A stretch of DNA of 64,000 nt from Bacillota bacterium (GTDB lineage Bacteria; Bacillota; Bacilli; Bacillales; Amphibacillaceae): contig DATGSQ010000013.1 of NCBI GenBank assembly GCA_035302425.1, positions 16,965-80,964 on the forward strand, in the 5' to 3' direction. Shown piece by piece: positions 37,987-57,534 of this stretch; position 1 is the stretch's first letter; the number at the start of each line of letters is the position of its first letter. The notes beneath the pieces were generated by a model. It saw nothing but the letters and a program-made list of their open reading frames with translations, did not search any database and was not told where the DNA came from. The translations under genes and the position numbers were made by a program.

Positions 37987-38014
37987 ATTTTTCTCTCCTT
38001 TAGATGATTGCTCT

Positions 38015-38064
38015 AACTGCTTCAGTCACTCAGCAGTTTAACGGCTTCCTAAAAAGGTCCAGCC
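38015..38064 (-). ncRNA. candidate cis-regulatory two-hairpin RNA upstream of flgE
   Basis: GGCUGGACCUUUUUAGGAAGCC and AACUGCUGAGUGACUGAAGCAGUU; GC-rich in an AT-rich context, no U-tract. Confidence 0.5.
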
Positions 38065-38438
38065 TATTTTGTCAAAATAATCGTTCCATTAATATTTGTG
38101 AAAATTTTACTTTCTGCTTCATCATTGTTCAATGCTGTAATAATTGTATGTTTTTCAGCATTAACGAGTAATGTTGCATTATTTAAAACGACGACAGATT
38201 CACGTACACCTTTTTGTTTTGCTTCTTTTAACTTTGAACTAAGGGTGGCCCATTGTCTGTCACTTAAATAAATATTTCTTTCAACCATCCGCTCTTTAGC
38301 ATGTTTACTAATTTTAACAGTCTGTTTATTAGCCAAAATTTCTCCGAAGTTTTTAGTTGATTCGGTCGGTTTTTGGCGATGTTTAACCGTTTGATCATAG
38401 ATTGTTGGATGGTATAGATGATGAATGCGTTCTGTCAT
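38064..38438 (-). CDS. TIGR02530 family flagellar operon protein
   Basis: KISKHAKERM..KGVRESVV..TIITA..IFTNINGTII; between flgD and flgE. Confidence 0.88.
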   Translation of the reverse strand: MTERIHHLYHPTIYDQTVKHRQKPTESTKNFGEILANKQTVKISKHAKERMVERNIYLSDRQWATLSSKLKEAKQKGVRESVVVLNNATLLVNAEKHTIITALNNDEAESKIFTNINGTIILTK

Positions 38439-38442
38439 TCTA

Positions 38443-38901
38443 TCAACTTCCCTCACCCGTATTATTTTTCCCAGTACCTGCCTCGATGATGGAATCAGCA
38501 TAGATTTCTTCGCCGTTTGCTAATTTAAAAATAGCCCAGCCATCTTTTTGAATAACAGATAATACTTCACTCGTATCTGTTCCTTTAATTTGTCCAGTTT
38601 CTTCATCGTACGTATAATAAGAGACGGTTTGTCCAATCATATGGCTATACTGAACAATTGGCGAAATCAGTTGGCTTTGCACGAGTGCATCAATTGATTT
38701 AGCCATATTCATTGTTTGTTCAAGGGATGAAAAAGTAGCCATTTGTGAAATAAATTCTTTATCTTCCATCGGATTTAATGGATCTTGATTTTGTAATTGA
38801 ACCATTAATATTTTTAAAAATTCTTCCTTACCTAGCTCAGTTCCCGGTGTTCTCGTTGGCTGATTCTTAGGTAAATAAAACGAATCATCAATTTTATTCA
38901 T
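38443..38901 (-). CDS. flgD: flagellar hook capping protein FlgD
   Basis: LGKEEFLKILMVQLQNQDPLNPMEDKEFISQMATFSSLEQ. Confidence 0.96.
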   Translation of the reverse strand: MNKIDDSFYLPKNQPTRTPGTELGKEEFLKILMVQLQNQDPLNPMEDKEFISQMATFSSLEQTMNMAKSIDALVQSQLISPIVQYSHMIGQTVSYYTYDEETGQIKGTDTSEVLSVIQKDGWAIFKLANGEEIYADSIIEAGTGKNNTGEGS

Positions 38902-38914
38902 TAGTTCACCTCGT

Positions 38915-40252
38915 TTAAACAAACTCATGTAAAATTTTATGAAAATCTAAATGCTCTTTTTCTTGAGTTAAGTTTTCATCGTCATCATGTTGTTGTTCAT
39001 CGTGTTGTTCTTGAGCATCTTCATCTTTCATAAAGGAGTCATCCTTTGGTAAGACTTCCTGCCCATCAGCAACTTTTTCAATTGACACTTGATGCGGGGC
39101 AAACATATGTTTCAATTGATGAATATTAGATTCGAGAATTGACTTAGTCGCTTGTGATGAAACGATAATTTTTACTGCCATTTCGCCATTAACTTCAACA
39201 AAACGAACGAGCATTTCTCCTAAATTGTCCGGTCTTAATGTAATCGCCAGTTGATTTGTCAATGATTGTGTTGGTGAAAATTGACTCGTTTGGACAATTT
39301 GTCGAAACTGTTTTAACAATTGTTCGTTCATAAAATGATCATTTTCCGATCGTTGCATGTAAATAACATATTGCTCAATCGGTGACATCGTTTGAGTTTT
39401 CAATATGTTAGGAGCAATTGTTTGAGCTTCGTTTATGTTCGTTGTTTTTGTAAGTAATGTCGGTGCCAAATGTTTCATCCATTTAATAACATCCGTTGTT
39501 GTTACTTTACTTTCGGTATTATAAGTTGCTTGTTTGGCAAAATTTGTCCGTTTAGAAAATCGACTCATAAGTTCTTTAAACAAACGTTGCAGCTCATCGT
39601 CACTTTCATTCATTAATTGTGTTAGTTGTAATTGTTCACTTTGATTGAGTTGATGAAATTGTTCTAACAGCCGCAATATTTCTGGTGCTTTTTTCATAAG
39701 CCCTTCTTCTGAACTAATTGATTGCATCATCTGATTAAATTGTTGCAATAATCGTTGATGGTCTATATGTTCTTCCTTCGTCTGTAAGTGTTGGCTTGGC
39801 ATATTCAATGGCATGGACGATTTAAAATTTGTATTGTTAAACAGTTCATATATACGATCCTTCGTTCCATTTTCGGTTGTTAAATTTAACATTAATGGCT
39901 CTATTATTTCTTCTTCCGAAATAGGTGGGCTGATCGCTAACAATTCATTAACTGAAATAACTAATTCTTTTATAAACGTTTCATTTTGCTCCTGTTCACT
40001 AAGTGAATGAACGAGTTCCCATATTTTTTCTATATCAGCATCACTTAACTGAAGTAGCTCACTTATTTGTTGCACAATCGATGAAAGTGTTTCGTCCGAT
40101 AACGATTGATTCAGATTCTCTGACTCCGTAGCTGCAGCTAAAGCATGTAAAAATTGCTCGTTATTAAAGGTAGCCTTACCGTAACTAGTAGTAGATTCAG
40201 AGAAATCCTTTGGTACATAATCATTAAAAAAGAGAAGTTGTAATCCGTTCAC
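38915..40252 (-). CDS. fliK: flagellar hook-length control protein FliK
   Basis: C-terminal LRPDNLGEMLVRF..LESNIHQLK; position. Confidence 0.88.
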   Translation of the reverse strand: MNGLQLLFFNDYVPKDFSESTTSYGKATFNNEQFLHALAAATESENLNQSLSDETLSSIVQQISELLQLSDADIEKIWELVHSLSEQEQNETFIKELVISVNELLAISPPISEEEIIEPLMLNLTTENGTKDRIYELFNNTNFKSSMPLNMPSQHLQTKEEHIDHQRLLQQFNQMMQSISSEEGLMKKAPEILRLLEQFHQLNQSEQLQLTQLMNESDDELQRLFKELMSRFSKRTNFAKQATYNTESKVTTTDVIKWMKHLAPTLLTKTTNINEAQTIAPNILKTQTMSPIEQYVIYMQRSENDHFMNEQLLKQFRQIVQTSQFSPTQSLTNQLAITLRPDNLGEMLVRFVEVNGEMAVKIIVSSQATKSILESNIHQLKHMFAPHQVSIEKVADGQEVLPKDDSFMKDEDAQEQHDEQQHDDDENLTQEKEHLDFHKILHEFV

Positions 40253-57261: not shown

Positions 57262-57534
57262 TTATTTCATATTACGGTCCAATGCATATATAAACGCAAA
57301 TACTTCAGCAACAGCTTCATACAATTCACCTGGAATTACGTCATTAATATTTAAATTAGCTAATAGTTCAACGAGTGAAGGATCCTCTAAAACTGGTACA
57401 TCATATTTTTTCGCTTGAGCTAATATTTTTTCCGCAACAATTCCTTTACCAACTGCTTTCACAACCGGTGCATGATTTTCTTGATGTTCAGGGTTATAAC
57501 TTAAAGCGACTACTTTTTTTCGTTTGTTCGTCAT
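57262..57534 (-). CDS. ylqH: stand-alone FlhB C-terminal-domain protein (YlqH/FlhX)
   Basis: VALSY..APVVKAVGKG..AEKI..IPGELYEAVAEVFAFIY, parallel to the post-NPTH part of FlhB in this window. Confidence 0.9.
   Translation of the reverse strand: MTNKRKKVVALSYNPEHQENHAPVVKAVGKGIVAEKILAQAKKYDVPVLEDPSLVELLANLNINDVIPGELYEAVAEVFAFIYALDRNMK

Follow-up and report, generated by a model that had tools for sequence, protein, structure and literature searches.

A conserved two-hairpin RNA ahead of flgE in Bacillota, with the TIGR02530 protein as its candidate partner

A 64,000-nucleotide stretch of DNA from a Bacillota bacterium of the family Amphibacillaceae (assembly GCA_035302425.1, contig DATGSQ010000013.1, positions 16,965 to 80,964; hereafter the window) carries a series of flagellar genes that reads, on the minus strand, fliK, flgD, the TIGR02530 gene, flgE, flbD and fliL. 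The coding part of the TIGR02530 gene spans 38438-38067 and its stop codon, TAG, occupies 38066-38064. The flgE start codon (ATG, 37986-37984) follows after a spacer of 77 nt (37987-38063), which holds two adjacent RNA hairpins. A first-pass annotation of the window, made from the letters alone, had given the positions of both hairpins and the length of the spacer, all of which we could confirm. Here we describe these hairpins as an uncatalogued cis-acting leader RNA of flgE, built from two distinct modules, for which the protein encoded immediately upstream is the most likely partner; we judge this reading as a whole to be evenly poised between right and wrong, and its parts differ in strength, as set out below.

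The G of the TIGR02530 stop codon is the first paired base of hairpin 1 in the window. The outer stem of this hairpin (38064-38061 with 38046-38043) is followed by an asymmetric internal loop, in which GGA (38060-38058) faces a single A (38047), and then by an inner stem (38057-38055 with 38050-38048). Four linker bases separate hairpin 1 from hairpin 2, whose loop (38032-38021) reads U-GA-GU-GA-CU-GA-A. In the window sequence no U-tract lies 3' of either hairpin, as an intrinsic terminator would require, and the first-pass view that the hairpins are not terminators is thus borne out. The folding energy of the spacer is at chance level (minimum free energy -19.4 kcal/mol, z -0.65, with 51 of 200 shuffled sequences equally stable); taken alone, it would have dismissed a real element. 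The case that the element is real is made by conservation and covariation, not by folding energy.

Thirty related genomes supplied the flgD-TIGR02530-flgE locus, and the window brings the number of loci to 31. The TIGR02530 gene sits between flgD and flgE in the window and in 30 of the 30 related loci, and all related spacers, which range from 71 to 114 nt, hold both hairpins. In a MAFFT alignment, made independently of any structural model, 89% of the cells at proposed pairs are paired and 10 of the 14 pairs have changed on both sides; compensatory cells number 54, compared with 20 in shuffled alignments and 3-10 when the pairing partner is slid. A covariance model of 56 positions, R1, was built from the 31 loci. 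It finds one strong match per related genome, always immediately 3' of TIGR02530, and a single match in the genome of the window. When 84 copies are aligned to R1, an alignment that is fitted to the model and hence biased towards the structure, paired cells make up 96.2%, both sides have changed in 11 of 13 pairs, and 256 cells are compensatory (74.5 in shuffles, 21-67 in slid controls). Covariation in this set extends to all six pairs of hairpin 2 and all four outer pairs of hairpin 1. The spacer motif is, with near certainty, a genuine conserved structured RNA.

Across the family, hairpin 1 consists of a covarying outer stem, a GGA/A internal loop, a CCN/N'GG inner stem and a variable terminal loop. 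Facing a single A or G, the 5' side of the internal loop is GGA in 72 of the 84 copies, GGC in 10 and GGU in 2. In hairpin 2 the stem, of 6-8 bp, covaries, and the loop is 12 nt long in 81 of 84 copies, with the consensus N-G-A-H-Y-G-A-Y-N-G-A-N, in which A3, G6, A7 and G10 are invariant. RNAalifold, run on alignments extended 30 nt upstream and through the flgE start, returned these two hairpins and no third helix. The element had been described as a tandem repeat with a shared GCU/AGC stem. That it is conserved has held up, but it is not made of tandem copies of one hairpin: the stem of hairpin 2 covaries freely, so the shared GCU/AGC stem is not a feature of the family, and the two hairpins are distinct modules.

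Two other explanations for the element were tried and set aside. Many hairpin 2 loops contain TTGAC, which could be taken for a -35 promoter element, and CCGAT could be taken for a sigma-D -10 element. Judged by eye, these letters are not conserved; the GA dinucleotides and the covarying stems are kept while the promoter letters are not, and we therefore rejected the promoter readings. A stimulator of stop-codon readthrough or frameshifting was also rejected, as in-frame stops come within a few codons. In an Rfam 15 covariance search of the spacer up to an E-value of 10, no family reached its gathering score, and the sole overlap was a spurious snoRNA match (18.7 bits against a gathering score of 80). 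Nor did we find a description of the motif in the literature on TIGR02530, on flgE RNA motifs and on structured noncoding RNAs of the hook, or in large motif-discovery surveys. The motif is new in the sense that it matches no Rfam 15 family and that we found no paper describing the RNA; the novelty suggested at first pass stands.

To place the element phylogenetically, we used an even sample of 151 Bacilli genomes, and the comparisons were carried across Bacillota. FlgD was found in 111 of the Bacilli genomes, TIGR02530 in 69, and the motif, at an E-value below 0.01, in about 50; every match at this level adjoins TIGR02530. In 42 flagellated Bacilli genomes without TIGR02530 we found no credible match. 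We fetched 15 TIGR02530 loci of Bacilli that the filtered search had missed, and with filters off 15 of 15 proved to hold a GC-richer copy scoring 12-34 bits. Of 301 Bacillota genomes sampled, 199 yielded TIGR02530, and in 40 of 40 loci fetched outside Bacilli the motif lies just after the TIGR02530 gene. In total, the motif is directly 3' of TIGR02530 in 86 of 86 loci across Bacillota (31 + 15 + 40). At most loci the motif starts within about 3 nt of the TIGR02530 stop codon, whose last base is often the first paired base of hairpin 1, and flgE begins 15-52 nt downstream of the motif. These counts bear on two earlier suggestions. The motif does track TIGR02530 rather than flgE as such, and TIGR02530, said to be absent from Bacillus subtilis, was indeed not found in our B. 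subtilis control genome, though FlgD was. According to a preprint, phage G has a gene resembling TIGR02530; a tblastn search of a phage collection with the TIGR02530 protein of the window found nothing. One group of the Bacilli sample, family f27 (loci L122-L125), has TIGR02530-like genes that score below the cut-off (60-73 bits) in open frames of 150-265 aa. In this family the motif is present in 4 of 4 fetched loci, TIGR02530 is matched in 8 of 10 genomes, and CsrA was found in none of the 10.

Bacilli carry one strong copy of the motif per genome, and in the lineage of the window itself the flgE copy is the only one. A whole-genome motif search over 151 genomes of the phylum identified 28 genomes outside Bacilli with 2-4 strong copies, and we fetched 20 multi-copy sites. 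Four of these are TIGR02530-flgE junctions. About 14 follow a FlgF-like rod gene and have FlgG next in most cases (at one, the downstream gene is not flagellar); the identity of FlgG was checked at one flgF-flgG site (TIGR02488, 363.9 bits). About half of the flgF-flgG copies (L212-L217, L219, L222, L226-L230) abut the stop codon of the rod gene. The inner stem of hairpin 1 is more variable in these copies, an example being GGACUG...CAG. The remaining 2 of the 20 sites lie in leaders of flagellin-type genes, with no TIGR02530 gene adjacent (Table 1), and one of them stands about 245 nt before the start codon with no open reading frame ahead of it on that strand. In one assembly of 130 contigs, a copy in the flgG leader is present and TIGR02530 and FlgD were both not found. 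We do not regard this assembly as a clean exception, for the whole TIGR02530-FlgD segment is probably unassembled. Because the unpaired purines are invariant and copies occur on several transcripts of axial subunits, the motif appears to imply a diffusible factor that recognises it in trans. A device dependent only on the upstream reading frame would leave both the loop invariance and the extra copies unexplained, and is disfavoured for that reason.

Table 1. Features of the flgE leader and its neighbours (positions in the window unless a locus is named), with the two motif copies found in flagellin leaders
Feature	Position	Strand	Evidence
flgD (hook cap), upstream neighbour	38443..38928	(-)	NF007197 145.9 bits (cut-off 129) and Pfam FlgD
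TIGR02530 gene, 124 aa and stop	38064..38438	(-)	TIGR02530 106.6 bits against a cut-off of 83.2
Two-hairpin RNA motif, full match to covariance model R1	38012..38067	(-)	65.6 bits, E 1e-14 (contig coordinates G000:C13:54976-55031)
Hairpin 1	38043..38064	(-)	GGCU / GGA / CCU / UUUU / AGG / A / AGCC, from sequence and pair counts
Hairpin 2	38015..38038	(-)	AACUGCU / GAGUGACUGA / AGCAGUU, stem of 6-7 bp and 12-nt loop
flgE Shine-Dalgarno AAAGGAG	37994..38000	(-)	Sequence; 14 nt past hairpin 2
flgE, short Bacillus-type hook protein, 283 aa	37135..37986	(-)	FlgE/F/G subfamily 256 bits and position in operon
Flagellin-leader motif copies, two non-Bacilli genomes	L211:1567-1621, L221:1352-1407	(-), (+)	49.6 and 38.7 bits

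Some remarks on the gene assignments are in order. The TIGR02530 protein is also matched by Pfam PF12611 (32.4 bits, threshold 21.1). Its open frame runs 21 codons further upstream (38439-38501), as far as an ATG (38501) where it overlaps the end of flgD; the ATG at 38438 is favoured as the start by its ribosome site, GAGGGAAG, and by the alignment of the family. NCBIfam calls the flgE product FlgG (NF009278, 394 bits, cut-off 350), which reflects the ambiguous naming of short Bacillus-type hook proteins. The source assembly amounts to 0.99 Mb in 43 contigs and is about 60% complete. By this locus the nearest named relatives are Virgibacillus, Oceanobacillus and Gracilibacillus, and a scan of genome contigs gave relatives of Bacillaceae type only. 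Near-identical DNA is carried by soil and manure metagenome DNA runs, with no RNA run among those listed.

What kind of protein is encoded just ahead of the RNA? We modelled it with AlphaFold2 from 31 homologues. Confidence is good over residues 41-124 (block means 82-94; predicted local distance difference test, pLDDT, above 90 for 41-110) and low over residues 1-40, within which the model places a short helix at residues 31-36. The N-terminal region is probably disordered. Foldseek returned weak matches to RelE and HigB2, with E-values of 0.05 or higher. In an exhaustive VIA-align comparison with 48,161 chains, RelE, PrpT, ParE, YafQ, HigB and YoeB fill almost all of the top 15 places, with Z-scores of 5.0-5.6. 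A weak match to DUF4258 recurs in 30 of the 31 homologues (best E-value 2.6e-4) and falls on the segment HAxxRxxxR (SKHAKERMVERNI here). Among 51 sequences spanning the phylum, none departs from H46 or R50, and 48 keep R54. The modelled domain points consistently, if at middling scores, to one family, the RelE/ParE (BECR) fold, and it is plausible that TIGR02530 is an RNA binder. DUF4258 is classed among the BECR-fold RNase toxins in two surveys, neither of which mentions flagellar members (PMC11980606; bioRxiv 10.64898/2026.08.28.747851). The first-pass description, of a disordered N-terminal stretch that closes with an FxxxL helix and leads into a RelE- or DUF4258-like domain, is supported by the low-confidence region of the AlphaFold2 model, by VIA-align, by the weak DUF4258 matches and by conservation. 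We found no functional study of TIGR02530 in the literature.

The N-terminal 40 residues of the window protein contain I5 and the motif F31-x-x-x-L35. Both are general in the family. All 51 of the sequences compared across the phylum have the phenylalanine, which falls at positions 26-47, and all 51 have L, F or Y four residues further on; in 50 of these 51, position 5 is hydrophobic, being I, V, L, M or F. In rod and hook subunits, a gate-recognition motif of the form FxxxPhi lies 30 or more residues from the start and docks on the FlhB C-terminal domain, and a small hydrophobic signal sits close to the N-terminus (PMC8983047). The TIGR02530 family shows both of these sequence hallmarks of early, rod/hook-type substrates in flagellar type III secretion, and in the window FlgD (FLKIL) and FlgE (FQDLM) bear the same type of motif. 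A co-fold of the FlhB C-domain with TIGR02530 residues 1-60 scored 0.27 against a mark of 0.32, a result that counts neither for nor against binding. We suggest, from these motifs, that the TIGR02530 protein may dock at the flagellar type III gate or leave the cell through it, and place export somewhat below even odds. Elsewhere in the window, an open reading frame of about 90 aa (57274-57534, minus strand) resembles the FlhB C-terminal domain (44% identity to FlhB residues 291-376), and this FlhB-C-like paralogue was found in every relative searched.

The potential of the RNA to pair with the flgE ribosome-binding site differs between Bacilli and the rest of the phylum. Outside Bacilli, the ribosome-binding region of flgE is complementary to GGACCUCC, the 5' strand of hairpin 1; it reads GGAGGUC in 19 of the 25 loci that have GGAGGU (among loci L127-L166). 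The canonical sequence is GGAGGUG, with G usual after GGAGGU in other genes, and flgE outside Bacilli deviates from this to C. The deviation is seen again in a separate set of 20 flagellar regions (L191-L210), where C follows GGAGGU at 10 of 12 flgE sites and at 6 of 49 sites of other genes. The predicted duplex averages -10.2 kcal/mol, compared with -7.5 kcal/mol for a reversed control; pairing of each strand with its own locus is better than shuffled pairing (permutation 0.0045), and at one locus a GGC variant of the internal loop occurs with a GGAGGGC variant of the ribosome site, a compensatory change. Outside Bacilli, then, the element could, by its base-pairing potential, toggle between hairpin 1, in which the ribosome site is free, and a helix that masks this site. 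Because the TIGR02530 stop codon overlaps hairpin 1, a ribosome that terminates translation of TIGR02530 must melt this hairpin, and the overlap could add translational coupling to whatever else the leader does.

We consider it likely that flgE is regulated after transcription. The reading that we prefer, in which TIGR02530 is the partner of the motif, has about even odds on the linkage and sequence features described above. In this scheme, the BECR-type domain would recognise the unpaired purines, namely the GGA/A of hairpin 1 and the GA-NN-GA-NN-GA loop of hairpin 2, and binding would set the initiation of flgE translation, the processing and stability of the message, or both. Control could take the form of repression or of activation. 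The two-part early-substrate signal, with its hydrophobic residue near position 5 and FxxxL near position 31, would allow the protein to dock at the type III gate or be exported through it. Synthesis of the hook protein would thereby be tied to the state of the export apparatus, with a logic that would be the post-transcriptional counterpart, at an earlier stage, of the FlgM checkpoint. It had been proposed at first pass that the protein binds or cleaves the hairpins, is itself exported and so closes a feedback loop at the hook stage. The conserved element, the linkage and the fold lend this plausibility, and the function itself is where we extrapolate.

Several points weigh against TIGR02530 as the partner. 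Binding, cleavage, export and regulation are all steps that we infer, and the adjacency of two genes is by itself a weak predictor of interaction. The fold score is middling (Z below 6), and the DUF4258 match of the window protein is below threshold (15.5 bits against 25) and covers profile positions 1-16 only. No TIGR02530 residue cleanly tracks the change of the internal loop from GGA to GGC or GGU. In Bacilli, the window included, pairing between hairpin 1 and the Shine-Dalgarno sequence is at control level (-5.9 against -6.0 kcal/mol), and the overlap of the stop codon can also be read as the mark of a ribosome-operated device that needs no protein.

The motif might instead be read by another trans-acting ligand, be it a protein, the ribosome or export machinery, or a small molecule bound in the manner of a riboswitch, with TIGR02530 an exported accessory of hook assembly that is encoded beside one copy. 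Invariant unpaired nucleotides would suit such a ligand, as would the flgG and flagellin copies that have no TIGR02530 gene next to them and the lack of protein-RNA co-variation; the alternative helix that can mask the flgE Shine-Dalgarno sequence outside Bacilli resembles an expression platform. We nevertheless think this unlikely. No other gene shows the same phyletic linkage to the motif, every checked genome with a strong copy has TIGR02530, save the 130-contig assembly that also lacks FlgD, and an RNA of about 56 nt made of two simple hairpins is small for a metabolite pocket. A purely cis-acting device would dispense with a ligand altogether. It might be a ribosome-operated switch that couples translation or masks the Shine-Dalgarno sequence, or a pair of protective hairpins flanking a cut by a host RNase, which would uncouple the abundance of the flgE message from that of its neighbours. 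The hook protein is needed at far higher copy number than the products of neighbouring genes in the operon, hairpin 1 overlaps or touches the preceding stop codon in most loci, as it does in about half of the flgF-flgG copies, and the GGAGGUC of flgE outside Bacilli extends the complementarity to the GGACCUCC strand. Yet generic stabilising or coupling hairpins need no loop purines that are invariant throughout a phylum; one strong copy precedes a flagellin gene with no upstream reading frame on its strand, and the alternative pairing is unsupported in Bacilli, including the window. To a device of this kind we give a minor share of the probability.

Two known families of RNA-binding proteins were also candidates. 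The GGA in the internal loop of hairpin 1, together with another in its 3' strand, recalls CsrA sites, and had led to the suggestion that CsrA is the ligand, a role that would bring the hook gene, besides flagellin, into the FliW-CsrA circuit; CsrA is present in the genome of the window, and two copies of the motif do lie in flagellin leaders. This suggestion has fared badly, and we now regard it as extremely unlikely. Of 84 copies, 12 have GGC or GGU in place of the internal-loop GGA, hairpin 2 has GA rather than GGA, many flagellated genomes with CsrA lack the motif, and the f27 family described above pairs the motif and TIGR02530 with no CsrA that we could find in its genomes. Hairpin 2 could alternatively be a K-loop for a protein of the L7Ae family such as YlxQ or YbxF, since the first and last GA of its 12-nt loop can form tandem sheared G-A pairs beside the stem and are flanked mostly by U-U or G-A, as found at 3b-3n in a K-turn. 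The invariant central GA and the pyrimidine-rich positions fall outside the definition of a K-loop, however, and the phyletic pattern shared with TIGR02530 is left unexplained; hairpin 1 is itself unfit to be a K-turn, as its internal loop has a single nucleotide on the 3' side. L7Ae homologues are general proteins for which we know of no link to TIGR02530 or flagella, and those of Bacillus have been reported to bind K-turns, not K-loops. We rate a K-loop as very unlikely.

How Firmicutes make about 100 hook subunits from a gene set in a long operon whose remaining products are required in much smaller numbers, with output matched to the state of the export gate, is poorly understood. The prevalence of TIGR02530 among the sampled Bacillota, with the RNA in every locus fetched, points to a widespread and unstudied layer of flagellar control. 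If our preferred reading is right, the catalogues of structured RNAs would gain a family, TIGR02530, a common "flagellar biosynthesis protein," would receive its first function, and a toxin fold of the BECR class would have been recruited to housekeeping regulation. A bolder version can be put forward, which we hold tentatively and think rather doubtful: TIGR02530 would be a domesticated binder of RNase-toxin fold that recognises a leader shared by the messages of the most abundant among the exported axial subunits (FlgE everywhere, FlgG and some flagellins outside Bacilli), and would itself be docked at the gate or exported, such that export frees these messages or the protein tethers them to the gate. 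Release by export would constitute a translational, FlgM-like checkpoint at the stage of the rod and hook, and tethering would couple translation to secretion at the gate.

The system is best placed by comparison with those already known. It resembles FliW-CsrA control of hag in B. subtilis and flaA in Campylobacter jejuni (PMC4894983) in being, on our reading, post-transcriptional, in using a structured leader with conserved purines, in serving an abundant axial protein and, as proposed here, in tying output to the progress of flagellar assembly and export. Unlike the CsrA sites, the motif has GA triplets in a 12-nt loop and GGA is not essential to it; its main target would be the hook gene rather than flagellin, it is uncoupled from CsrA in both directions, and the candidate protein has a predicted BECR fold, not that of CsrA. 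Conserved structured RNAs in the leaders of flagellar genes are themselves not new: Rfam includes flagellar RNA motifs such as Termite-flg and flg-Rhizobiales, and a c-di-GMP-I riboswitch precedes flgB in Clostridioides. These RNAs differ from ours in architecture and in the genes that they serve, and no Rfam 15 match was credible.

On the side of the protein, TIGR02530 shares with RelE/ParE toxins and DUF4258 the predicted fold of residues 40-112 and the HAxxRxxxR start of the domain. It differs from them in having no antitoxin gene, in lying within a flagellar operon in about two-thirds of sampled Bacillota, in its added, export-like N-terminal region and in scoring below the Pfam threshold. 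A parallel in logic is FlgM, the anti-sigma factor of sigma-28, which is exported after completion of the hook. Like FlgM, TIGR02530 would be a small regulator, with a probably disordered N-terminus, that the flagellar type III system clears from the cytoplasm, and gene expression would thereby be coupled to the stage of assembly; unlike FlgM, it would act on RNA and bears an early, rod/hook-type signal, and its export is a prediction. Finally, the proposed arrangement recalls the autoregulatory leaders of ribosomal protein operons, in which a protein encoded in the operon binds RNA of the same transcript and sets the translation of neighbouring genes. Here, by contrast, the RNA lies downstream of the gene for the putative regulator and would control the gene that comes next, and further copies of the RNA occur on other transcripts.

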